Source of the DNA: an uncultured Limibaculum sp.
GTDB lineage: Bacteria > Pseudomonadota > Alphaproteobacteria > Rhodobacterales > Rhodobacteraceae
Direction: 5' to 3'
Assembly (NCBI GenBank): GCA_964632555.1
Contig: CAZWDE010000002.1
Location: 1-42,619 of the forward strand
Length of the DNA stretch: 42,619 bases
Part shown: piece after piece, positions 1-12,020 of the stretch
Numbering within the stretch: the first letter of the stretch is position 1
How the letters are laid out: the number at the start of each line of letters is the position of its first letter
Notes under the pieces: generated by a model
Database searches by the model: none
Told to the model about the DNA's origin: nothing
Seen by the model: the letters and a program-made list of their open reading frames with translations, nothing else
Made by a program: the position numbers and the translations under genes

Positions 1-1
1 C

Positions 2-1003
2 GGCTCGGCGGCGGCGGTCGCGGCCGATCTGTGCACTGCCGCGCTCGGCACCGACACCGGCGGCTCGATCCGCCAGCCCGCGGCCTTCACCGGCACCGTC
101 GGGATCAAGCCGACCTATGGCCGCTGCTCGCGCTGGGGGATCGTCGCCTACGCCTCCTCGCTCGACCAGGCGGGCCCCATGGCCAAGACCGTGCGCGACG
201 CCGCGATCCTGCTCGGCGGGATGGCCGGCCACGACGCGCGCGACTCGACCTCGGTCGACACGGCCGTGCCGGACTACGAGGCCGCGATCGGGCGCGACAT
301 CCGCGGCACGCGGATCGGCCTGCCCGTGGAGTACCGCGAGGGGCTGCCCGAGGAGACGGCGCGGCTCTGGGACGAGGGCGCGGCGATGCTGCGCGAGGCG
401 GGCGCCGAGACGCTCGAGATCCGCCTGCCCCACACCAAGGCCGCCCTGCCGGCCTACTACATCATCGCGCCGGCCGAGGCGTCGTCGAACCTCGCGCGCT
501 ACGACGGCGTCCGCTATGGCCGCCGGGCGCGCCTCGAGCAGGGCGACGGGATCGTCGATCTCTACGAGAAGACCCGCGCCGAGGGGTTCGGGCCCGAGGT
601 GCAGCGCCGCGTGATGATCGGCGCCTACGTGCTCTCGGCCGGCTACTACGACGCCTACTACCTGCGCGCGCAGAAGGTGCGGGCGCTGGTGCGGCGCGAC
701 TTCGACGCGGCGCTCGCCGAGGTCGACGCGATCCTCGCGCCGGTGACGCCCGGCACCGCCTTCCCGCTCGGCGCGATGGAGGGCGACCCGGTCGCGATGT
801 ATCTGCAGGACGTGTTCTCGGTCACGCTCAACCTCGCGGGGCTTCCCGGCATCGCGCTGCCGGTGGCGCTCGGGGCGAACGGACTGCCGCTCGGGCTCCA
901 GCTGATCGGGCGGGCCTGGGGCGAGGCCGAGATCGTCGCGCTCGCCGCCGCGCTCGAGGCGCGCGCGGGCTTCAGCGCCAAGCCCGCGCGATGGTGGGCC
1001 TGA
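2..1003 (+). CDS. gatA: Asp-tRNA(Asn)/Glu-tRNA(Gln) amidotransferase subunit A (5'-truncated by window edge)
   Basis: The frame is open from base 2: GSAAAVA...[31 protein letters not shown] (amidase signature), [15 protein letters not shown], and [26 protein letters not shown]. Confidence 0.97.
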
Positions 1004-1021
1004 GCCGGCGGCTCGGGGGGC

Positions 1022-1201
1022 TCAGGCGGAGCCCGCGAGAAGCGCGGCGATCACACCGGCGCAGGCCGCGAAGAGCGCGAGCTCCCGCTCGAGGCCGACG
1101 ACGACGGCGATGGTCAGGGGCACGACGACGGCGAGCAGCATCGTCTGCGACGTGCTCAGCTCGAACGCCTCCACGATTCGGGGTGCGGTTTCGAAGTCCA
1201 T
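1022..1201 (-). CDS. small hypothetical membrane protein (59 aa, two hydrophobic segments)
   Basis: ATG at 1201 has GGAG about 8 nt upstream. MDFETAPRIVEAFELS is followed by two hydrophobic stretches. The ORF fills the gap between gatA and the next gene. Confidence 0.55.
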   Translation of the reverse strand: MDFETAPRIVEAFELSTSQTMLLAVVVPLTIAVVVGLERELALFAACAGVIAALLAGSA

Positions 1202-1413
1202 GCCGACAACTCCATCCGGCTCACAACGCACCCCCGCTCATGGTCACCCGAGACAGATAGTGCCTCAAACCGGCCACATTTCAAGTGTGTCGAACGCCCT
1301 CGGATCGGCCCGCCGCCCGCCCGCCCACCCCGGCGCGCCGATCCGAGGGCGGGTGACCGGGGCGGTCGGGGCGTGCTAGGGGAGCCCGAAGACCCAGAAC
1401 CGGGAGACCACCG

Positions 1414-1974
1414 ATGGCCCTTCAGGAGACGCCGATCTGCGAGTTCGGCCGCCCCGCGCCCGACTTCCGCCTGCCCGCGACCGACGGCAAGACCCATGCG
1501 CTCGCCGACATCCGGGGGCCGCGCGGCACGCTGATCATGTTCAACTGCAACCATTGTCCCTACGTGAAGGCGGTGGCCGACCGGATGGTGCGCGACGCGC
1601 GGGACCTGATGCCGCTCGGGATCGGGATCGCCGCGATCTGCTCGAACGACGCGACGACCCACCCCGAGGACAGCTTCGAGAACATGCGCCGGTTCGCGGA
1701 GCAGCACGGCTTCCCCTTCCCCTATCTCCACGACGAGACGCAGGAGGTGGCGCGGGCCTACGGCGCGGTCTGCACGCCGGACTTCTTCGGCTACGACGCG
1801 GATCTCGGGCTCCAGTATCGCGGGCGGCTCGACAGCTCGGGCGCGCGGCCGGCCGGGCGCGACGCGACGCGCGAGCTCTTCGAGGCGATGCGCCAGGTGG
1901 CCGAGACCGGCGAGGGCCCGCGCGAGCAGACGCCCTCCATGGGCTGCTCGATCAAGTGGAAGGCGGCGGCCTGA
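1414..1974 (+). CDS. thioredoxin-fold / AhpC-TSA family redoxin (PRX-like1)
   Basis: APDFRLP, CNHCPYV (CxxC), FPFPYLHDETQEVARAYGAVCTPDFF, C-terminal GCSIKWK; RBS GGGAG. Confidence 0.93.
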   Translation: MALQETPICEFGRPAPDFRLPATDGKTHALADIRGPRGTLIMFNCNHCPYVKAVADRMVRDARDLMPLGIGIAAICSNDATTHPEDSFENMRRFAEQHGFPFPYLHDETQEVARAYGAVCTPDFFGYDADLGLQYRGRLDSSGARPAGRDATRELFEAMRQVAETGEGPREQTPSMGCSIKWKAAA

Positions 1975-3142
1975 GCCGGATATAGGCGCGGAGCGCCGCG
2001 GCTCCGGCGGCGGGCCCGAGCGCGAGGGCCGCGAGGGCCGAGGGCCAGCCCGCGGCGGCGGCGAGGAGCGGCAGCCCCTGCACCGTCAGCGCGGTCAGCA
2101 GGAAGCCGAGCGCCGTCTGCAGCGTCATCAGCGAGCCCGCGCGCTCGGGCGGCGCGTGATCGGCGACCATCGTCGAGTAGAGCGCCGAGTCCGGGATGAT
2201 GGCGATCCCCCAGAGCACGAGCGCCGCGGCGACGAGCCAGGGCGCGCCGCCGAAGGCGAGGGCCGCGGCGAGCCCGGCCGCGCCGCTCAGCGCGAGGCAG
2301 CCGAGCGCGACCTCGGCCCGGCCGAGGCGGTCGGCGAGCCAGCCCGCCGGCACGCAGGCGAGGCCCCCGAGCGCGATCGCGGCGAAGGCGACGAGCTTGG
2401 CCGCGGCCGGATCCCCCGCTCCGGCGGCGGCGAGGGAGAGCCCGGCCGCCACGCCCACCCAGGCCCAGAAGGCATAGAGCTCCCACATGTGCCCGAGATA
2501 GCCGAGGATCGCATAGCGGAGCCGCGGCTCGGTCCAGGCGAGGCGGATGGCGCCGGGATCGAGCCGGGCGGCGCGCGCGTGGTGCGGCCCGAGGGCCGTG
2601 GCGAGCGCGAGGAGCCCGCCCGCGGCCGCGAGCGCCGAGCTCGCCGCGACCACCGCGCGCCAGTCGAGCCCGGCGCGTTCGCCCGCCCAGGCGAGGAGAT
2701 GCGGCGAGGCCGAGCCGAGCGTCAGCGCGCCGATCAGGAGCCCGACGAGGAGCGCGCGGTCGCGCGTGCCCCAGCCGACCGCGATCTTCATGCCGACCGG
2801 GTAGACGCCGGCGAGGGCCGCGCCGGCGAGCGCGCGGGCCGCGACCGCGGCCCACCCGCCGATCGGCAGGGCGAGGAGCGCGAGATTGGCCGCCGCGGCG
2901 ACCAGCGCGGAGAGGCAGAAGACCGTTCGCGGGTCGAAGCGGTCGGCGAGGCCGAGCAGCGCGTAGCCGAGCGCGCCCGCCGCGAAGCCGAGCTGCACGG
3001 CCGTCGAGAGCGGGCCGAGATCGCCCGCCGCGAGCCCCGCCTCGCGCGCCATCTCGGCGGTGACGGCGGCGGCGGAGAACCAGACCGAGAGGGCGGCGAC
3101 CTCGGCGAGGATGAGCAGCGCGATCGCGCGGCGTTTCGGCAT
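1952..3142 (-). CDS. MFS transporter
   Basis: About 12 hydrophobic helices with MFS loop motifs GLADRFDPR and GWLADRLGR; HMWELYAFWAW. Confidence 0.92.
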   Translation of the reverse strand: MPKRRAIALLILAEVAALSVWFSAAAVTAEMAREAGLAAGDLGPLSTAVQLGFAAGALGYALLGLADRFDPRTVFCLSALVAAAANLALLALPIGGWAAVAARALAGAALAGVYPVGMKIAVGWGTRDRALLVGLLIGALTLGSASPHLLAWAGERAGLDWRAVVAASSALAAAGGLLALATALGPHHARAARLDPGAIRLAWTEPRLRYAILGYLGHMWELYAFWAWVGVAAGLSLAAAGAGDPAAAKLVAFAAIALGGLACVPAGWLADRLGRAEVALGCLALSGAAGLAAALAFGGAPWLVAAALVLWGIAIIPDSALYSTMVADHAPPERAGSLMTLQTALGFLLTALTVQGLPLLAAAAGWPSALAALALGPAAGAAALRAYIRLRPPPST

Positions 3143-3158
3143 CGTTCCCTTCCCGCGA

Positions 3159-3187
3159 TTGACCCTGCCGTCGCGCGGCGATTAACT
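3159..3187 (+). promoter_or_regulatory. possible sigma70 promoter for the trans-sulfuration/GAF-channel operon
   Basis: TTGACC-N17-TTAACT, 45 nt upstream of the ATG at 3233. Confidence 0.3.
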
Positions 3188-3232
3188 CGGCAGGCGAACC
3201 AATGCCTTAGGCCGAGCGGGGGAGACGCGCAA

Positions 3233-4435
3233 ATGGCAGAGGACCACGCGCCGGGCCGCGATCACCGCTCGGTCGTGCGCCGGGGCCGGTGGCCGGCGAG
3301 CGCGACGCGCCCGCTCGTCACGCCGATCTGGCCGGCCGTCGCCTGGGAGGCCGAGGACGCCGACGCGCTCGACGCGACCTACGAGGGCGGCGCGGCGGGC
3401 TACACCTATGCGCGCGAGGGCCACCCGAACTGGTCGGTGCTGGCCGAGAAGCTCGACTGGATGGAGGGCGCGGCCGGGGGCGTCGTCACCGGCTCCGGCA
3501 TGGCGGCCGTCGGCGCCGTCTTCCTCGCGACCCTCGCCCGCGGCGATCACGTGGTGGCGGGCGACCAGCTCTATGGCCGCTCGCTGCGGCTCCTGCGCGA
3601 GGAGCTGCCGCGCATGGGCGTGGAGGTCAGCTTCGTCGACCCGACCGACGGCGCGGCCTTCGCCGCGGCGCTGCGGCCCGAGACGCGGCTCGCGCTCGTG
3701 GAGGTCGTCTCCAACCCGACGCTCCGCGTGGCCGACATGGAGGCGATCGCGGCCGCCTGCCGCGCGCGCGGCGTGGCGCTCGCCGTCGACAACACGTTCA
3801 CGACGCCCGAGACCTATCGCCCGATCCCCGGGGGCGCGGACTACACGATCCAGTCGGTCACCAAGCTGCTGGCGGGCCATGCCGACGTGACGCTCGGCTA
3901 TGTCGGCGCGCGCGAGCCCGAGGCGGCGCGGCGGGTCTACGACATCGTGGCGAGCTGGGGGATGACGCCCTCGCCCTTCGACTGCTGGCTGGCCGAGCGC
4001 GGGCTCCACACCTTCGCGCTCCGCTATGCCCGGGCCGAGGCCAACGCCGCGCGGCTCGCCGACCATCTGGCGGGGCTCGCGGGCGTCGAGCGGGTGATCT
4101 ATCCCGGGCGGCCGGACCATCCGGACCACAACCGCGCGATGGCGCTGCTCGGCGGGCATGGCGGGCACATGGTGAGCTTCCGCCTGCGCGGCGGGCGAGC
4201 CGCGGCCAACCGCTTCCTGCGCGCGGCCGAGCACCTGCCCTTCGCGCCGACCCTCGGCGACGTCGCGACGACGCTCTCCCACCCCGCCTCCTCCTCGCAT
4301 CGCGGCATGAGCGCGGCGGCGCGCGAGGCGCTCGGCATCACCGAGGGGTTCGTGCGCGTCTCGGTCGGGATCGAGGACCCGGAGCTCCTCCTTCCGGAGT
4401 TCGGAGAGGCCGTCGCGGCCGCGCGCGATGGCTGA
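3233..4435 (+). CDS. PLP-dependent trans-sulfuration enzyme (cystathionine gamma-synthase/lyase family)
   Basis: YTYAREGHPN, SGMAAV, VDNTFTTP, QSVTKLLAGHAD (PLP lysine), PTLGDVATTLSHP, RVSVGIED. ATG at 3233 follows a GGGAG RBS. Confidence 0.93.
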   Translation: MAEDHAPGRDHRSVVRRGRWPASATRPLVTPIWPAVAWEAEDADALDATYEGGAAGYTYAREGHPNWSVLAEKLDWMEGAAGGVVTGSGMAAVGAVFLATLARGDHVVAGDQLYGRSLRLLREELPRMGVEVSFVDPTDGAAFAAALRPETRLALVEVVSNPTLRVADMEAIAAACRARGVALAVDNTFTTPETYRPIPGGADYTIQSVTKLLAGHADVTLGYVGAREPEAARRVYDIVASWGMTPSPFDCWLAERGLHTFALRYARAEANAARLADHLAGLAGVERVIYPGRPDHPDHNRAMALLGGHGGHMVSFRLRGGRAAANRFLRAAEHLPFAPTLGDVATTLSHPASSSHRGMSAAAREALGITEGFVRVSVGIEDPELLLPEFGEAVAAARDG

Positions 4436-5474
4436 GGGCGCCGTCGCCACGGGGCGCGACTATGCAAGCCTGCGCAAGCGCATCCGCGCGCTCGCCGAGG
4501 GCGTCGACGACCCCGTGGCGCTGATGGCGACGATCGCCTGCGAGCTCTATCACGGCGCGGAGGGGTTCGACTGGGTCGGCTTCTACCGCGTGACCGCGCC
4601 CGAGATGCTGACGATCGGGCCTTATCAGGGCGGGCATGGCTGCCTGTCGATCCCCTTCGCCCGCGGGGTCTGCGGCGCGGCGGCGCGCACCGGGCGGACC
4701 GTGATCGTGCCCGACGTCGAGGCCTTTCCGGATCACATCGCCTGCTCGTCGAGCACGCGCTCGGAGATCGTGCTGCCGGTGCGCGACGCCGAGGGCCACC
4801 TGATCGCGGTGCTCGACATCGACAGCGACCGGCCGGACGCCTTCGCCGAGCGCGACCGGGCCGAACTCGAGGCGCTGCTCGACGAGATCTTCCGCCGGCC
4901 GCCGACGCCGCCGGAGCCGCCCGAGCGCCACGGGCTCCGCCGCGTGATCTTCGAGGACGACGTCTTCTACGGCCCGGTGCTGCTCGGCCTGCATTTCGCC
5001 ATCGCCCTGTTCGGCTGGGGCCTCGAATGGGCGTTCGCCGCGCCCAACCGCGTGGCGCCGGGCGAGCTCGCCGCGAGCTTCGTGATCGTCGCGCTGATGC
5101 TGGTGCCCGTGGGGCTGATCCTGCGCGCCTACTACCACCAGAAGGTGCGCCCGCTGCCGACCATCTTCTTCATGTTCGGCCATGCCGGGCTGATCGTCGT
5201 CGGCTTTGCCGGGATCTACGGCATGCTCGTCTACGGGCCGGCGGGCGGCTACGAGCCGGGGCAGGCGATCACGGCCGCGGGCTGCGAGCCGACCTGGGAG
5301 CGCAATCTCTACATGTCGGCGATCACCTTCACCACGGTGGGCTACGGCGACTGCACGCCCTACGGGATCACACGGCTGTTCGCCACGATGCAGGGCGTGA
5401 TGAGCGTGATCTTCCTCGGAACGACGATCGGCCTGATGACCGGGATCGCGCCGGCGGGCTCGGCCGACGACTGA
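4428..5474 (+). CDS. fusion of an MsrC/fRMsr-type GAF domain to a potassium-channel pore domain (Ion_trans_2-like)
   Basis: N-terminal WVGFY...GPYQG..GC..IPFARGVCG...HIACSS.TRSEIVLP...VLDIDS, then a Pro-rich linker, about 4 TM helices and a pore signature LYMSAITFTTVGYGD. Overlaps the upstream gene by 8 nt. Confidence 0.85.
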   Translation: MAEGAVATGRDYASLRKRIRALAEGVDDPVALMATIACELYHGAEGFDWVGFYRVTAPEMLTIGPYQGGHGCLSIPFARGVCGAAARTGRTVIVPDVEAFPDHIACSSSTRSEIVLPVRDAEGHLIAVLDIDSDRPDAFAERDRAELEALLDEIFRRPPTPPEPPERHGLRRVIFEDDVFYGPVLLGLHFAIALFGWGLEWAFAAPNRVAPGELAASFVIVALMLVPVGLILRAYYHQKVRPLPTIFFMFGHAGLIVVGFAGIYGMLVYGPAGGYEPGQAITAAGCEPTWERNLYMSAITFTTVGYGDCTPYGITRLFATMQGVMSVIFLGTTIGLMTGIAPAGSADD

Positions 5475-5484
5475 CCCGCCGGCC

Positions 5485-6147
5485 TCAGGCGATCTCCTCG
5501 TAGAGCGCGATGCGGCGGGGGTCGGCGCGGGCCTCGGCGATCCAGCGCGCCACCGGCTCGTGCCCCAGCACCCGGTCGGCATAGGCCGCCGTCTCCGGCC
5601 GGGTCAGCGCGTAGCTCCGGAGCCGGCTGGCGACCGGGGCATAGAAGACGTCGGCCGCCGTGAAGTCGGGGCCCGCGAGCCACGGCCCCCCGGTCTCCGC
5701 GAGCGCCCAGCCCCAGAGGGCCGCGAGCCGGTCCAGATCGGCGCCGAGCCCCTCGGGCACGGTGGCGAGCGGGCGCCCCTCGCGGTGCATGTTCATCGGC
5801 GCGACCCCGCGGAGCACCGGGAAGCCCGCATGCATCTCGGCGACGAGGCAGCGCGCGATCTCGCGGAGCCGCCGGTCGGCCGGCCAGATGCCCGCCGCGG
5901 CGTGGCGCTCGGCGAGCGTCTCGGCGATCGCGACGGTGTCCCACACGCGGCGGGTCGCGCCGTCCTCGCGCCACGAGAGCTGGGGCACGGTGCGCGCCGG
6001 AGCGCGTTCGGCGCGCATCCGGTCGAAGGCGGGCGTGTACATCGGCACGAGGTCCTCCTCGTGCTTGATCCCGAAGGCCGCGAGCAGCAGCCAGCCGCGC
6101 AGCGACCAGCTCGAATAGGCCTTGTCGCCGATGGTGATCGTGTACAT
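5485..6147 (-). CDS. glutathione S-transferase
   Basis: IGDKAYSSWSLRGWL, TVPQL, VWDTVAIAETLAE, AEMHAGF, FTAADVFYAPV. ATG at 6147 with GGGAGG RBS. Confidence 0.93.
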   Translation of the reverse strand: MYTITIGDKAYSSWSLRGWLLLAAFGIKHEEDLVPMYTPAFDRMRAERAPARTVPQLSWREDGATRRVWDTVAIAETLAERHAAAGIWPADRRLREIARCLVAEMHAGFPVLRGVAPMNMHREGRPLATVPEGLGADLDRLAALWGWALAETGGPWLAGPDFTAADVFYAPVASRLRSYALTRPETAAYADRVLGHEPVARWIAEARADPRRIALYEEIA

Positions 6148-6345
6148 CGCCGCCTCCCGTCCTGCACCGACCCGGGATCGTGGCGACGTGCGGGCGCGAG
6201 CGCAAATCAGGAAATCTGCGGAGACCGAGCACGCGCCGCGATGGTACCCGGCGGCGGGGGGCCGGGCGGCGCGGACCCGCCGGGCCGACGGCGCCTGCAA
6301 CCGCCCCGGGGTCTCGCCACACCGCCCGCCCTGCGCCCGCGCGGT

Positions 6346-6385
6346 CCGCCGCGAAATATTCAACGAAGCGTCACCGAACCGACGT
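6346..6385 (+). promoter_or_regulatory. degenerate tandem Pho-box-like 11-bp repeats upstream of the alkaline phosphatase
   Basis: 11-bp periodicity CCGCCGC-gaaa-TATTCAA-cgaa-GCGTCAC-cgaa-CCGACGT, resembling CTGTCAT-N4 units, about 100 nt before the phosphatase ATG. Confidence 0.35.
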
Positions 6386-6483
6386 TGTCCGCGCCGCCGG
6401 CCCGCCTTCATGTCGTGGGGTTGTGCGCGGGACGCCACCCGCCCGCGCCGGCCCGTCGTGTCATCCACCCAACGAGGTGCTCC

Positions 6484-7773
6484 ATGCTCCGGACCATGCT
6501 TCCGACGACGGCCCTCGCCCTCGTCCTCGCCGCCGCCCCGGCGCGCGCCCAGGACACGGGCAACGTGATCTTCCTCCACCCCGACGGCACCGGGGTGAAC
6601 CACTGGACCGCGGCCCGCATCGCCCATGCCGGCCCCGACGGCCAGCTCAACTGGGACCGCCTGCCGGCGATCGGCGTCTACACCGGCCACATGCGGACCC
6701 GCCTGACCGGCACGAGCCACGGCGGCGCGACCGTGCATGCCTACGGCGTCAAGGTCCACCACGACAGCTTCGGCCTCGACCGCGATCAGGAGATCACCGC
6801 GGCCTCGGGCGCGCAGATGTCGATCGCCGAGGAGGCGATGGCCGCCGGCAAGGCGGTCGCCCTCGTCCAGACCGGCCACATCGCCGAGCCGGGCACCGCG
6901 GCCTTCGTCGCCTCGAACGAGAGCCGCGGCGACCGCGAGGACATCGCGCGCCAGGTGATCGAGTCGGGCGCGCAGGTGATCATGGCCGGCGGCGAGCGCT
7001 ATCTCTTGCCGGAGGGCGTTCAGGGCCGCCACGGCGCCGGCGAGCGCGAGGACGGCCTCAACCTGATCGAGCGCGCCGAGGAGCTCGGCTACACCGTGGT
7101 CTACACGGCCGAGGAGCTCGCGGCCCTCGACCTCGCGGCGACCGAGCGTCTGCTCGGCGTCTTCGCCCGCCACCACACCTTCAACGACCAGGAGCGCGAG
7201 CGGAACCTGATCGAGGGCAAGCCGACCTATATCGAGGGCGCGCCGACGCTCGCCGAGATGACCGAGGCCGCGCTCGCCATCATCTCCCGCGACGAGGACG
7301 GCTTCTTCGCCGTCATCGAGGAGGAGGGCACCGACAACATCGCCAACAACATGAACGCCGCCGGCACGCTCGAGGCCCTCGGCCGGGCCGACGCCGCGGT
7401 GGGCGTGGCGATGGACTTCGTCGAGGCCAACCCCGACACCCTGCTGGTGATGGCGGCGGATTCCGACGCCGCGGGGCTCCAGGTCTATTCGGGCTCGCTC
7501 GCGCAGGAAGGCGAGCCGGTGCCCGCGGTGCCCGAGGGCGGCGGCGTGCTGCACGGCGTGCAGGGCAGCTTCGGCGACGTCTTCATGTCGGCGCCGGACG
7601 CCAACGGGGTCAGCCACCCCTTCGCGATCGCCTTCACCGGCTACGCCGACGTGGCCGGCGGCATCCTCGTGCGCGCGGCCGGCCTCAACGCCGACCAGGT
7701 GGAGCCGCTGATGGACAACACCGAGGTCTACACGCTGATGCACCGCACGCTCTTCGGCGCGCCGGGGCAGTGA
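6484..7773 (+). CDS. phoA: secreted alkaline phosphatase (PhoA family, atypical metal ligands)
   Basis: Signal peptide ending APARA-Q; NVIFLHPDG, GTSHGGAT (catalytic Ser region), VIMAGGE, PTLAEMTEAAL, GFFAVIEEEGTD, MDNTEVY. Confidence 0.85.
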   Translation: MLRTMLPTTALALVLAAAPARAQDTGNVIFLHPDGTGVNHWTAARIAHAGPDGQLNWDRLPAIGVYTGHMRTRLTGTSHGGATVHAYGVKVHHDSFGLDRDQEITAASGAQMSIAEEAMAAGKAVALVQTGHIAEPGTAAFVASNESRGDREDIARQVIESGAQVIMAGGERYLLPEGVQGRHGAGEREDGLNLIERAEELGYTVVYTAEELAALDLAATERLLGVFARHHTFNDQERERNLIEGKPTYIEGAPTLAEMTEAALAIISRDEDGFFAVIEEEGTDNIANNMNAAGTLEALGRADAAVGVAMDFVEANPDTLLVMAADSDAAGLQVYSGSLAQEGEPVPAVPEGGGVLHGVQGSFGDVFMSAPDANGVSHPFAIAFTGYADVAGGILVRAAGLNADQVEPLMDNTEVYTLMHRTLFGAPGQ

Positions 7774-7779
7774 GCCTCC

Positions 7780-7802
7780 GGGGGCGCGGCCGCCGCGCCC
7801 CC
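7780..7802. terminator. GC-rich hairpin between convergent phosphatase and dctM
   Basis: GGGGGCGCGG-ccg-CCGCGCCCCC is a perfect 10-bp stem; no long U-tract. Confidence 0.55.
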
Positions 7803-7813
7803 TTGTCCCGACC

Positions 7814-9199
7814 TCAGCCGATGACGAGGGAGGGCAGCCACAGCACGATGCCGGGGAAGGCGATCAGCACCGCCACCGTCGCGGCATCGGCGAGGAAGAA
7901 GGGCGAGGCGCCGCGGAAGACGTCCTGCACGCTGATGTCGTGGCGCTCGCCGGCCACGCCCGCCACCACGTAGCAGTTGAGCCCGATGGGCGGCGTGATC
8001 AGGCAGAGCTCGGCCATCTTCACAACGATGATGCCGAACCAGACGGCGCACTGGTCGGCCGTCATCCCGAGCGCGCTCTCCTCCGCGCTGCCCCCCTCGC
8101 CCCCGTTGAGCGCGATCACGGCCGGGAAGGTGATCGGCAGGGTGAGGATCAGCATGCCGATCGCGTCCATGAACATGCCGAGGATCACGTAGGCGCCGAG
8201 GATCATCAAGAGCGTCAGCATCGGCGACTGCTCGAGCCCGGCAATCCAGTCGGCGAAGGCGCCGGGCAGGTCGGCATAGCCGAGATAGCGCACATAGATC
8301 AGCACGCCCCAGATCATCGTGAAGATCATCGCCGTCAGCTTGGCGCTCTCGACCAGCGCGCCCGAGAGCTCCTTCCAGCGCATGCCGCGGGCGAGCGCCA
8401 TCAGCAGCACGACGAAGGCGCCGAGGGCGCCCGCCTCGGTGGGCGTGCCCCAGCCGCCGTAGATGCAGAAGATGATGATGAAGACGACGAAGAGGATCGG
8501 CAGCGCCCCCGGCAGCGCGCCGAACCGCTCGCGCCACGTGAAGCCGCCGACCGGGGGGCCGAGATCGGGGCGCAGCCGGGCGAGGCCGATCACCAGCCCG
8601 CCGTAGATGAGCGCCGAGACGAGGCCGGGGAGGAACCCCGCCATCAGCAGCTGGCCGACCGAGCTTTCGGTGATGATGGCGTAGATGACGAGGATCGCCG
8701 AGGGCGGGATCAGCGAGGCGAGCGTGCCGCCCGCCGCGACCACGCCCGCCGCGAAGCGCTTGTCGTAGGAGAGCTTGAGCATCTCGGGGATCGCGATGCG
8801 CGCGAAGACCGCCGACGTGGCGACCGAGGCGCCCGAGACCGCGGCGAAGCCCGCGGTGGCGAAGACGGTCGAGACGCCGAGGCCCCCCGGCAGCCAGGCG
8901 ACCCAGCGCTTGGCCGCCTCGAAGAGCGCGCGCGTGAGGCCGGCATAGTAGGCGAGATAGCCGATCAGGATGAAGGTGGGGATCAGCGAGAGCACGTGCG
9001 TCGACATCTTGGAGTGCGGCACCTGGCCCGCGATCTTGAGCGCGGTCTCGAAGCCGCGGGCGAAGCCCTGCCGCTCGGCGAAGATCCAGACGAGGCCGAC
9101 GAAGCCGATGAGCGCGGTCGCGAAGGCGACGCGCATGCCGAGCAGCACGAGCAGGATCAGGACGCCGGCGAGGAGGATGGAGACCTCGATCGTGGTCAT
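7814..9199 (-). CDS. dctM: TRAP transporter large permease
   Basis: GFAAVSGASVA, AAGGTLASLIPPSA, GTPTEAGA, LITPPIGLNCYV; highly hydrophobic. Confidence 0.95.
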   Translation of the reverse strand: MTTIEVSILLAGVLILLVLLGMRVAFATALIGFVGLVWIFAERQGFARGFETALKIAGQVPHSKMSTHVLSLIPTFILIGYLAYYAGLTRALFEAAKRWVAWLPGGLGVSTVFATAGFAAVSGASVATSAVFARIAIPEMLKLSYDKRFAAGVVAAGGTLASLIPPSAILVIYAIITESSVGQLLMAGFLPGLVSALIYGGLVIGLARLRPDLGPPVGGFTWRERFGALPGALPILFVVFIIIFCIYGGWGTPTEAGALGAFVVLLMALARGMRWKELSGALVESAKLTAMIFTMIWGVLIYVRYLGYADLPGAFADWIAGLEQSPMLTLLMILGAYVILGMFMDAIGMLILTLPITFPAVIALNGGEGGSAEESALGMTADQCAVWFGIIVVKMAELCLITPPIGLNCYVVAGVAGERHDISVQDVFRGASPFFLADAATVAVLIAFPGIVLWLPSLVIG

Positions 9200-9245
9200 C
9201 GCGCGGCACCGGGCGGCGTCGGGGGGCTCGGCGGCCTCGGGCGGC

Positions 9246-9938
9246 TCATCGCCGGTGCGCGCGTCCCGCGCGCGCCGGCTCTTCGCTGCCCGGTCCGCCC
9301 GCCTCGGCGTCGACCGCCGCGCCCGAGACCGTCTCGGCCTCCGCCGCGGCCTGTTCGGCCGCGCTCTCGATCAGCGGCACGGCGACCGGGCGCTCCTCGC
9401 CGCGCCGGAGCGCCCGGCCGTAGGCCCAGAGCTGGAGCGCGAGCCGCAGCGCCAGCAGCCACAGCATCACCGGCACGAGGAGCTTCACCGGCCAGGTCGG
9501 CAGGCCGAGATCGATGGTGCTGTCGCGCGACCACGAGGGCGAGCCCCAGTCGAAGCTCCGCTCGAAATGCAGGAACGCGCCCCAGGCGATCACCAGGGTG
9601 AGCGCGAGCATCAGGAGGACCGAGACGAACTCGAAGAGCCAGAGCGCGCGGCCCCGGAGCTGGCCGACCAGGATGTCCATCCGGATATGCCCGCCGACGC
9701 GCTGGCAGGCGGCGATGCCGAGGAAGGCGATGACCGGCACCGCCTGCACCATCCAGTCGACGAAGCCCGGCACCGGCAGGTCGAAGAGCTTGCGCCCGAG
9801 GATGTTGGCGACCGACACGAGCATCACCGCGAGGATCGCGAGCCCCGCCATCAGCGTGAGCGCCCGCTCGACCGCGTAGAGCGCCCGGTCGGCGCGGCTG
9901 ACCGCGCTCGCATCGGACCGGACGGACTGTTCGGACAT
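9246..9938 (-). CDS. dctQ: TRAP transporter small permease
   Basis: Four TM segments and the GGHIRMDIL motif; lies between dctP and dctM. Confidence 0.93.
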   Translation of the reverse strand: MSEQSVRSDASAVSRADRALYAVERALTLMAGLAILAVMLVSVANILGRKLFDLPVPGFVDWMVQAVPVIAFLGIAACQRVGGHIRMDILVGQLRGRALWLFEFVSVLLMLALTLVIAWGAFLHFERSFDWGSPSWSRDSTIDLGLPTWPVKLLVPVMLWLLALRLALQLWAYGRALRRGEERPVAVPLIESAAEQAAAEAETVSGAAVDAEAGGPGSEEPARAGRAHRR

Positions 9939-9954
9939 GGCGCGCTCCGGGGAA

Positions 9955-9975
9955 GCGGGGGCGCGGCGCCCCCGC
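9955..9975 (-). terminator. stem-loop directly 3' of dctP (attenuator or mRNA stabiliser)
   Basis: GCGGGGGCG-cgg-CGCCCCCGC is a 9-bp stem in the dctP-dctQ spacer. Confidence 0.5.
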
Positions 9976-9981
9976 GCGGGA

Positions 9982-11034
9982 TCAGCAGTCGGTCTCGACG
10001 CCCGAGGCGGTGACGGCCTTGCCGGTCTCGCGGCAGCTCCGGAGCACCTCCTGCGTCAGATCGTAGAGCTCCTGGCCCGGCACGCCCTGCGCTTCCATGC
10101 TGGCGATCCACTCGGCGCGGATCGGATCGGCCGCCTTGGAGCGGAACGCCGCGATCTCCTCCTCGGGGATCTCGACCTTCTGCACCGACTTCTCCGCGAG
10201 GATCTGCTCCCAGCGCGCCAGCAGCTCGCCGTAATTCGCGAGGTAGTGGTCGATCGCCTCGTCGATCGAGCTGTCGAGCGCGGCGCGGTGCTCCTCCGAG
10301 AGGCTCTCGTAGGCGTCGATGTTGACCACCACCGGGCAGTTGACGGTGCCGGGGTTGAGGTTGGTGGTCCACCAGTCGGCGATGTCGATGGTGCGGAACG
10401 AGAGATGCGCGTGCTGCGCGAAGGAGACCGCGTCGACCACGCCCGATTCGAGCGCACCGTAGGCCTCGGTCGCGGTCACGGAGGTGGGCGTCGCGCCGAC
10501 CGTGCGGAACGCCTCGCCGAGGCCGCCGGTGGCGCGCACGCGCAGGCCCTCGAAGTCCTCGAGCTCGGTCGGCGCCTCGCCCACGCCCGCGAGGTTGTAC
10601 TGCGGCATCGGCGAGGTCATCAGCAGCTTGGCGTTCCAGCGGGCGAGATCGCGCTGCGTCGCCGGGTGCTCGTAGACCGCGCGGGCCACCGCCACCTCCT
10701 TGCCGAGATCGGAGACGCCGAGGAAGGGCAGCTCGAGCACGGTGATCGTCGGGTTCTTGTCCGGGTGGTAGCCGGCGCAGAACTGCGCCATCTCGAAGGC
10801 GCCGATCTCGATCCCGTCGAGGTTCTCGGTGTTCCGCGACAGGCCGCCATAGGAGATGTTGAGGGTGAACTCGCCGTTCGTCTTCTGCTCCACGAGCTCG
10901 GCGAGCTTGTGCACGTGCTCGGTGAAGGCGCGGCGCTTGCCCCAGAGCGAGACGTTCCACTCGAGGGCCGCGGCCTCGGCGGCGCCGAAGGCGAGGAGGG
11001 TGGCGGCGAGAAGGCCGGTCTTGATGCGGGTCAT
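9982..11034 (-). CDS. dctP: TRAP transporter substrate-binding protein
   Basis: Signal peptide; ELPFL, FEGLRVRATGG, EAYGALESGVVD; GGAG RBS. Confidence 0.93.
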   Translation of the reverse strand: MTRIKTGLLAATLLAFGAAEAAALEWNVSLWGKRRAFTEHVHKLAELVEQKTNGEFTLNISYGGLSRNTENLDGIEIGAFEMAQFCAGYHPDKNPTITVLELPFLGVSDLGKEVAVARAVYEHPATQRDLARWNAKLLMTSPMPQYNLAGVGEAPTELEDFEGLRVRATGGLGEAFRTVGATPTSVTATEAYGALESGVVDAVSFAQHAHLSFRTIDIADWWTTNLNPGTVNCPVVVNIDAYESLSEEHRAALDSSIDEAIDHYLANYGELLARWEQILAEKSVQKVEIPEEEIAAFRSKAADPIRAEWIASMEAQGVPGQELYDLTQEVLRSCRETGKAVTASGVETDC

Positions 11035-11172
11035 CGGAGGACTCCCTGTGGCTGTGATGCGCTCTGACGGCGCTCGCGGCCGAGCCTACCGATCCCGTGT
11101 GAGGACACAACCGGTTTCGTCCCGGGAGCGCCGGGCCGCCCTGCGGGGCGCCCCGGCCTCGCCCGGTCGCGC

Positions 11173-11943
11173 CTAGAAGAAGAGCTCGAAGTTCAGCGAC
11201 AGGATCGCGTCGGGCGCGTCCTCGGTGATGCCGAAGAGGATGGCGAGCCGCGGCTCGAGCGCGCGCCCGCGGCCGAGATCGAACTCGTAATAGGCCGCAG
11301 GGCCGATGAAATGCTCGTCCTCGCTCTCGCTCTTGAAGGCGTTCTCGACCCCGCCATGCACCTCGACGCCGAGCGAGAGGGCGTCGATCACCGGTGTGCT
11401 CGCCTGGAGCGCGTAGGCGAGACCTGTGCCCTCTCCGTCCTCGAACGGCACCTCGAAGAAGACGTTGGCGATCGTCTCCACGGGGCCGATGGCGACCTCG
11501 GCGATCGGGCCCACCTCGACCGCGCCCGCATTGATCCCGCCGGTGTTCGGCACCTCGAGCGCCACGAAGACCCCGACCGCCTCGAGCGCGAAGACGCCGT
11601 GCTCGCCGTGGTCGTGCCCGCCATGGCCGTGCCCCTCTCCGAACGGCAGGAGCAGCACGTTCTCCCACTCGAAGGCCTCGAACTCGGCGCTCTCGTTCTC
11701 GGGGTTCGCGATCTCGGCGGCGAGCGTCGTCTTCCAGAAGCTCGTGACGCCGTAGCCGATGGCGAATTCGTGCGCCGAGCGCTCCTCGCCGTCCTCCACG
11801 TCGTCGAGCGCGACGCCGTTGAGGATCTCGAGCTCGAAGCCCTGCGGCACGACATCGGGGTGGATCACCTCGAAGATCTGTGCCTTGGCCACGGGTGCGA
11901 CGGCGGTCGCCAGGGCGGCGATCGCCACGGTCTTGGTTCTCAT
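11173..11943 (-). CDS. putative outer-membrane beta-barrel protein with His-rich loop (candidate zinc uptake porin)
   Basis: Signal peptide ending AKA-Q; alternating amphipathic strands; acidic; loop GEGHGHGGHDHGEHG; C-terminal LSLNFELFF (barrel-type terminal Phe). ATG at 11943 with GAGGGAG RBS. Confidence 0.75.
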   Translation of the reverse strand: MRTKTVAIAALATAVAPVAKAQIFEVIHPDVVPQGFELEILNGVALDDVEDGEERSAHEFAIGYGVTSFWKTTLAAEIANPENESAEFEAFEWENVLLLPFGEGHGHGGHDHGEHGVFALEAVGVFVALEVPNTGGINAGAVEVGPIAEVAIGPVETIANVFFEVPFEDGEGTGLAYALQASTPVIDALSLGVEVHGGVENAFKSESEDEHFIGPAAYYEFDLGRGRALEPRLAILFGITEDAPDAILSLNFELFF

Positions 11944-11995
11944 GACTGTCTCCCTCGTTGCGCCGGTCGCCTGGTGCGGGCCGGCCGAGGGAATA

Positions 11996-12020
11996 TGCAA
12001 TGTTATAACATAACATTACA
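11996..12020. promoter_or_regulatory. Zur-binding box
   Basis: TGCAATGTTAT-AAC-ATAACATTACA is a near-perfect palindrome matching the proteobacterial Zur consensus (AATGTTATANNATAACATT). It forms an AT-rich island about 55 nt upstream of the His-loop barrel gene. Confidence 0.85.

Follow-up and report, generated by a model that had tools for sequence, protein, structure and literature searches.

Free methionine-R-sulfoxide reductase (fRMsr, MsrC) is described in the accessible text of three reviews as an enzyme of free methionine-R-sulfoxide, with no channel fusion mentioned there (PMC6211008, PMC6210582, PMC6316033). Its substrate is free, not protein-bound, methionine sulfoxide (PMC6316033), and in the available part of a further paper it serves only as a GAF template (PMC4030172). 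Oxidoreductases are known as partners of K+ systems. In the portions of these sources that were available, the Kv-beta aldo-keto reductase acts as a regulator of Kv gating (PMC9317154), full activation of KefC requires the KefF quinone reductase (PMC10224563), and the NUDT9H domain of human TRPM2 is no longer catalytic and gates through binding (PMC5671594). Here we describe an open reading frame (ORF) encoding an fRMsr GAF domain and a K+ channel pore as one polypeptide. It lies in a 42,619-nucleotide stretch from an uncultured Limibaculum sp. (Rhodobacteraceae; GenBank assembly GCA_964632555.1, contig CAZWDE010000002.1), referred to in full as the window. Both domains are known, as is the general idea of pairing an oxidoreductase with a K+ system; the fRMsr-channel architecture appears to be new. 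No such fusion was found in the open-access literature, as far as its text was available and with subscription journals outside the scope, and no pairing of fRMsr with a channel was found in the PDB.

The fusion resembles each of the described partnerships in part. Kv-beta on Kv1 is likewise a cytoplasmic oxidoreductase on a tetrameric K+ channel, with redox state linked to gating (PMC9317154, available text), but it is a eukaryotic, separate subunit with NADPH chemistry, whereas the fusion is covalent and bacterial, with thiol/sulfoxide chemistry and a hypothetical coupling. KefFC and KefGB are likewise bacterial K+ systems with an oxidoreductase partner, and Kef protects against thiol-reactive stress (PMC10224563, available text). 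Kef, however, is a glutathione-gated K+/H+ antiporter that bears an RCK/KTN domain and has a separate partner in KefF; the fusion is a channel of the filter type whose GAF domain is part of the chain. In TRPM2 the enzyme domain belongs to the channel polypeptide and is catalytically active in one lineage but dead in another (PMC5671594, available text), a pattern comparable to the two fused lineages, A and B, described below; TRPM2 differs in being an animal protein of unrelated channel and enzyme families with the enzyme domain at the C-terminus.

A first-pass annotation of this DNA had proposed a single 348-amino-acid (aa) ORF with fRMsr cysteine motifs, a linker, about four transmembrane helices and a K+ filter, lacking an obvious internal start and overlapping a trans-sulfuration enzyme gene by 8 nt. 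Each of these features was borne out. Translation gave one uninterrupted ORF (P0001; Table 1) with the motifs GHGC (aa 69-72), RGVCG (79-83) and HIAC (103-106), the linker motif PPTPPEPP (158-165), and AAGCEP (283-288), TTVGYGD (302-308) and GDCTP (307-311) in the channel half. Pfam placed GAF_2/GAF at aa 32-152 and Ion_trans_2 at aa 288-338, both above curated cut-offs. The AlphaFold model contained four long helices past the linker (178-203, 211-236, 242-266, 314-339) and a pore helix at 290-302. Candidate internal starts within residues 140-190 were limited to two in-frame GTG codons, neither with a Shine-Dalgarno-like upstream sequence by eye. The overlap was real: the stop codon of the upstream gene lies at 4433-4435 and the fusion starts at 4428. 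The GAF domain is predicted to be cytoplasmic and the turret and both pore cysteines external, because the helices are even in number, the loop before M1 is basic and the turret is acidic.

Such an ORF could be an artefact of sequencing or assembly, or the result of recent read-through confined to a single strain. In its favour, two NCBI gene calls annotated as 'ion channel' (P0010 and P0307) comprise the channel half alone. Both calls, however, sit inside intact, uninterrupted fusion ORFs. The junction was bridged without insertion or deletion by one contig in each of four of four sequencing runs, labelled stromatolite or microbial mat, from one study that is possibly the source of the window; the four in-gene variants listed were all synonymous. 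The host's genus-level group was represented by 61 genomes, of which eight carried an uninterrupted fusion (G000, G004, G027, G033, G036, G061, G075 and G084), at identities down to 62%, five carried the GAF domain only, one had a match truncated at a contig end and 47 had no match. One of the eight is the cultured Paralimibaculum aggregatum NKW23 (G061, Paracoccaceae). Protein searches gave 12 clusters (query included) with both HIAC and GYGD at 95% or more query coverage and 43-100% identity, drawn from 120 matches listed out of 679. A stop codon or frameshift between the domains, named by the first-pass annotation as grounds for refutation, was found in none of the eight genomes or four runs, and its claim of a conserved fusion with both halves intact held. 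The artefact explanation can be regarded as refuted: the gene encodes one polypeptide with two domains, and the fusion is conserved in one alphaproteobacterial clade.

The partial calls P0010 and P0307 belong to loci L003 (G036) and L005 (G027), and calls of this kind conceal the fusion from database users. P0298-P0301 seem to be further channel-half-only calls of the same kind.

The N-terminal half matched known enzymes closely. All 10 PDB sequence matches to it were fRMsr or GAF-protein homologues (among them 5hl6, 3mmh, 3ksf, 1vhm and 1f5m), and the GAF model aligned to 3ksf in Foldseek with an E value of 3e-12 and a root-mean-square deviation (rmsd) of 1.8 A. Twelve fRMsr residues are named as conserved or catalytic in the available part of a fungal Msr preprint (bioRxiv 10.1101/2021.02.26.433065); by that list all 12 were present in 12/12 lineage-A fusions and in 23/23 stand-alone controls. 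In P0001 they comprise the catalytic Cys106 in HIAC and two upstream cysteines, Cys72 and Cys82; Trp49, Tyr53, Glu113, Asp130 and Asp132 (yeast Trp66, Tyr70, Glu132, Asp149 and Asp151); and Pro65, Gly68, His103 and Val115 (yeast Pro84, Gly87, His122 and Val134). The domain thus shares the GAF fold and all key residues with the enzymes of Staphylococcus aureus (3ksf), Neisseria meningitidis (3mmh), Escherichia coli (YebR, 1vhm) and yeast (1f5m), and differs in being fused to a membrane channel and, in lineage B, in lacking both Asp residues. Thioredoxin-like, MsrA and MsrB motifs were found in the host genome. The lineage-A GAF domain likely still reduces free methionine-R-sulfoxide.

Both halves are under purifying selection. 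For the eight closest of 28 pairs, the ratio of nonsynonymous to synonymous rates (dN/dS) was 0.13-0.28 in the GAF domain and 0.02-0.17 in the pore; ratios for distant pairs, which reached 0.73 in the pore and exceeded 1 in one of 28 pre-pore values, are unreliable at a third-position GC content of about 95%. Codon bias was equal across both halves and the neighbouring genes.

The C-terminal half has the helix-pore helix-TxGYGD-helix module of KcsA-type channels, recognised by both Pfam and AlphaFold, and the filter of P0001 aligns letter for letter with that of KcsA. The filter read TTVGYGD, STVGYGD or TTLGYGD in 12/12 fused clusters. Foldseek with the channel model returned nothing at E<=0.001, and its top rows were all K+ or cyclic-nucleotide-gated (CNG) channels; in a VIA comparison 89 residues of the model aligned to KirBac3.1 (rmsd 2.6, Z 8.3), a score not above that of unrelated helical bundles. 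A prediction with four channel copies and one GAF domain scored 0.00 and was not used as evidence. The C-terminal domain of RCK- or cyclic-nucleotide-gated channels (MthK/Kch, SthK) is absent: Pfam found no RCK or cNMP domain, and the tail past M2 is about 10 aa in 12/12 lineage-A sequences. Also absent is the four-helix Arg-repeat sensor of voltage-gated six-helix channels, as only two extra helices are present, the second with a single Arg at its end. The closest likeness is to small four-helix channels without a GAF domain (P0121, P0123, P0124, P0134 and P0280), which likewise have the extra helices and pair a turret Cys with GYGDC. Unlike them, the fusion has an N-terminal enzyme domain and, in lineage A, a longer turret.

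It could be argued that the membrane half has lost conduction and merely anchors the enzyme. Other Ion_trans_2 proteins were found in 5/5 fused genomes checked, with two more in G000, so the fused pore would be an accessory rather than the sole channel of its hosts. The filter is nevertheless intact in every fused cluster, and within subclades no other part is as well conserved as the pore (88-96% identity); we consider a silent anchor quite improbable. In G000, contigs C32 and C268 encode further K+-filter proteins, one with a long RCK-like C-terminal domain by eye and one a small two-helix pore.

Cys286 and Cys309, which flank the pore helix, were invariant in 12/12 fused clusters. The same pair occurs in channel homologues without a GAF domain, and for this reason it is more likely an inherited structural outer disulfide than a redox gate or GAF-linked switch. 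Across 190 filter motifs from 148 representatives, a turret Cys accompanied 8/9 GYGDC motifs vs 49/181 others, a count that includes non-independent relatives and comes from a profile seeded with these cysteines. Sequences with GYGDC and a turret Cys (P0121-P0124, P0134, P0227, P0230, P0250, L062 and L063) form a probable outer-disulfide subfamily.

The distribution of the fusion was narrow. An msrC match was found in 14/61 genomes of the genus-level group vs 314/400 genomes of other genera, and msrC is widely lost in the host's group. In the host genome (80% complete) the fusion was the only msrC match. Outside the group, none of the 149 msrC matches listed (excluding G000) from the 400 genomes reached the pore, and a close fusion is unlikely among 168 further matches, which scored below the GAF domain alone. 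When GTDB was scanned for the channel-half pattern, only P. aggregatum matched. A metagenome scan with the channel profile (11 of 64 parts) found at least 80 distant-channel loci, none listed with an fRMsr motif, and 0/683 matching plasmid records reached 80% query coverage. The ESM Atlas listed no large cluster with both domains, a result that shows neither novelty nor absence.

Within the 61 genomes, strong matches to the channel-half profile occurred in fused genomes only (8/8). On a quick neighbour-gene tree (31 rows) the eight fused genomes formed one clade together with G003, with a Shimodaira-Hasegawa-like approximate likelihood-ratio (SH-aLRT) support of 99. G003 (99% complete), the ninth member, matched neither half. 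We infer that a small, regulator-less channel gene was inserted behind a resident msrC whose stop was then lost.

A second fused lineage, B, comprises P0011-P0013 and cluster members P0281-P0297, all from metagenomes and on short contigs. It retains the three fRMsr cysteines. In 6/6 sequences Tyr and Gly replace both catalytic Asp residues and Arg79 is changed to Cys, creating CGVC (CxxC); in 5/6 Gly71 is changed to Arg. The turret is shorter than in lineage A. These changes suggest that the lineage-B GAF domain is kept without apparent catalysis, in a non-catalytic role, and it may be either an enzyme turned sensor or a domain in decay. On the channel tree, channels without a GAF domain fall between A and B with moderate support. 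A single origin of A and B was rejected neither for the channel half (approximately unbiased (AU) test, p 0.061) nor for the GAF half (AU p 0.16 for A+B and 0.26 for A), and the GAF trees did not separate one origin from two. The two lineages may represent separate fusions.

The reading we favour, with a probability of roughly 0.45, is that this conserved enzyme-channel fusion forms a predicted tetrameric K+ channel whose pore is likely modulated by the GAF domain. Four subunits would assemble with their GAF domains on the cytoplasmic side, where thioredoxin is found and where the domain likely still turns over its substrate. The substrate-bound or disulfide state would then likely influence the pore. 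A flexible linker ties the GAF domain to a peripheral helix and not to the gate helix, so any coupling would be indirect, through docking at the inner face or through GAF dimers pulling on neighbouring subunits, in the manner of an oxidoreductase subunit rather than a rigid lever. Given typical bacterial potentials, a channel that opens during oxidative load would most likely let K+ in and reduce the membrane potential. A more specific version, in which free methionine-R-sulfoxide or the fRMsr disulfide it leaves gates the channel as a direct electrical read-out of oxidative damage, and in which lineage B (possibly a second fusion) has gone from enzyme to pure sensor, seems to us less likely than not.

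The favoured reading is followed closely by another, nearly as probable, in which the fusion is tolerated and joins two independent parts. A channel gene behind msrC would have lost the intervening stop and borrowed the promoter and start of msrC; the enzyme would work tethered to the membrane, and pore gating would depend on some other input (pH, lipid, tension or voltage). Fusion would bring at most 1:1 co-expression, with GAF dimers perhaps aiding assembly, and would persist since splitting it takes a new start as well as a stop. Several observations fit this explanation and weigh against modulation by the GAF domain. The linker is flexible and variable: 15-22 aa across relatives, Pro-rich and unconserved, with a predicted local distance difference test (pLDDT) score of 58-65 in the AlphaFold monomer. 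Nearly no GAF residues are specific to fusions, with only Arg18 (12/12 vs 4/23 stand-alone) and Val50 (12/12 vs 10/23) enriched, and the GAF rate relative to the neighbouring gene is similar in fused (median 1.3, 21 pairs) and stand-alone (1.7, 6 pairs) forms. The nearest channel relatives among 1.84 billion representatives are Ion_trans_2 proteins of 156-230 aa without a GAF domain (including the five small channels above, of which P0280 is possibly itself a truncated gene call), and these group with the fused channels on the channel tree (95/94). Precomputed Pfam architectures show fRMsr-like GAF domains fused also to thiolase, FGase, HD, B3/4, GNAT and ROK domains. The slot past the upstream enzyme gene is occupied by many different genes, so a fusion there may be merely tolerated. 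Finally, the stand-alone msrC of G026 groups with the fused P0009 (96/89), and G026 has no close channel match; this msrC is likely a reversion from the fusion, although its contig ends about 70 nt past the stop. Non-channel fRMsr fusions include P0025, P0054, P0056, P0073, P0099, P0101 and P0113, the GNAT fusion having 96 members.

Further points tell against modulation, and against tight gating in particular. The GAF domain is joined to a peripheral helix, and the predicted template modelling score (pTM) of the monomer models was 0.59 for the full-length protein vs 0.85 for the channel alone. The greater divergence of the lineage-B GAF domain than of the pore (means of 0.094 vs 0.028 in eight sequences) is also compatible with decay. 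The fused genomes are kin, not independent, and counts of retention are overstated accordingly. By the accessible text of PMC10224563, KefF catalysis is dispensable for KefC activation.

Other findings speak for modulation, some of them directly against two independent parts. An intact enzyme, with its full active site, is retained in a genus where 47/61 genomes have no msrC match, and the close channel homologue is never found alone within the genus. Both halves are missing together in G003. Lineage B retains its GAF domain despite loss of the catalytic Asp pair, and A and B are possibly two separate fusions, with a single origin not rejected (AU p 0.061). The channel has no regulatory domain of its own, and Kv-beta, KefF and TRPM2 NUDT9H offer precedents by analogy.

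The enzyme might instead provide a local service, consuming methionine-R-sulfoxide or oxidant near the pore or, once oxidised, handing its disulfide to another partner, with no mechanical gating. The fully conserved lineage-A active site and the loose linker are consistent with this, as is sea-anemone TRPM2, which gates without its enzyme domain (PMC5671594, available text) and in this respect also counts against our reading. No ligand site is evident on the channel half, however, the Asp pair is missing in lineage B, and the known substrate of fRMsr is not protein-bound, as cited above from the accessible text. We regard this explanation as improbable.

If the GAF domain controls the pore, the fusion would add a gating input new to prokaryotic K+ channels and, at 348 aa, offer a small model of an enzyme turning channel sensor and a test of whether sensory GAF domains can arise from fRMsr-like enzymes. 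If the halves are independent, it would be a curiosity of one clade. The cultured host P. aggregatum NKW23 carries the fusion, so the question is directly testable.

Table 1. Features of the fusion ORF and its flanking genes, in window coordinates.
Feature	Position	Strand	Basis
fRMsr-K+ channel fusion ORF (P0001), 348 aa	4428..5474	+	uninterrupted translation, Pfam, full-length relatives
fRMsr/MsrC GAF domain, aa 10-155	4455..4892	+	Pfam, PDB sequence matches, Foldseek
Cys72, resolving (yeast Cys91)	4641..4643	+	key-residue alignment
Cys82 (yeast Cys101)	4671..4673	+	key-residue alignment
HIAC motif including catalytic Cys106	4734..4745	+	key-residue alignment
Asp130 and Asp132 (yeast Asp149/Asp151), absent from lineage B	4815..4823	+	key-residue alignment
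Pro-rich linker and short amphipathic helix, aa 156-175	4893..4952	+	AlphaFold, sequence
Two extra predicted transmembrane helices, aa 178-203 and 211-236, no Arg repeat	4959..5135	+	AlphaFold, sequence
Outer pore helix M1, aa 242-266	5151..5225	+	AlphaFold
Turret Cys286	5283..5285	+	in 12/12 fused clusters
Pore helix, TTVGYGD filter (5331-5351), Cys309	5295..5354	+	AlphaFold, alignment
Inner helix M2, aa 314-339, then ~10-aa tail	5367..5444	+	AlphaFold, sequence
Cys/Met metabolism pyridoxal-phosphate (PLP) enzyme (PF01053), upstream	3233..4435	+	Pfam; 8-nt overlap with fusion ORF
Glutathione S-transferase (GST) gene, convergent	5485..6147	-	Pfam

The locus was compared at the slot between the PLP-enzyme and GST genes. 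In the best 30 loci of 48 genomes matched, the slot held the fusion in seven, a stand-alone msrC in four and no msrC in 17, and two were cut by a contig end; in 4 of the 17 the GST gene followed directly. The PLP-enzyme gene also preceded a stand-alone msrC in four genomes of the genus and in one genome of another genus. The slot varies and can hold a stand-alone msrC, and the sulfur-metabolism neighbour therefore predates the channel and is uninformative about it. The first-pass annotation had taken this neighbour as support for a link between sulfur metabolism and the channel, an argument that falls with these five genomes. Its suggestion that the two pore-flanking cysteines could form an outer disulfide fits their predicted outer position, but the pair lends no support to a redox gate. 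Its overall interpretation was right as to a real, conserved fusion and loses both of these arguments; for the gating by methionine sulfoxide or thiol state that it proposed, indirect evidence points both ways.

The GST gene adjoins this locus in non-fused relatives too, as does the major facilitator superfamily (MFS) transporter gene. In the window, the fusion locus is flanked by genes for an AhpC/TSA-family redoxin (1414-1974, +), the MFS transporter (1952-3142, -) and the GST. At L034, L036, L037, L041 and L043 the PLP-enzyme gene is followed by methyltransferase-like, sulfotransferase-like and membrane glycosylation-like genes (by eye), as at an insertion-prone site. No Rfam families were found within 1-12000 of the window, and no sigma-70 or terminator matches within 3000-6500. 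A gene at 11173-12000 (-) encodes a secreted-looking, acidic protein of 275 aa that contains a His-rich stretch, matches no Pfam family and by eye looks like an outer-membrane barrel.

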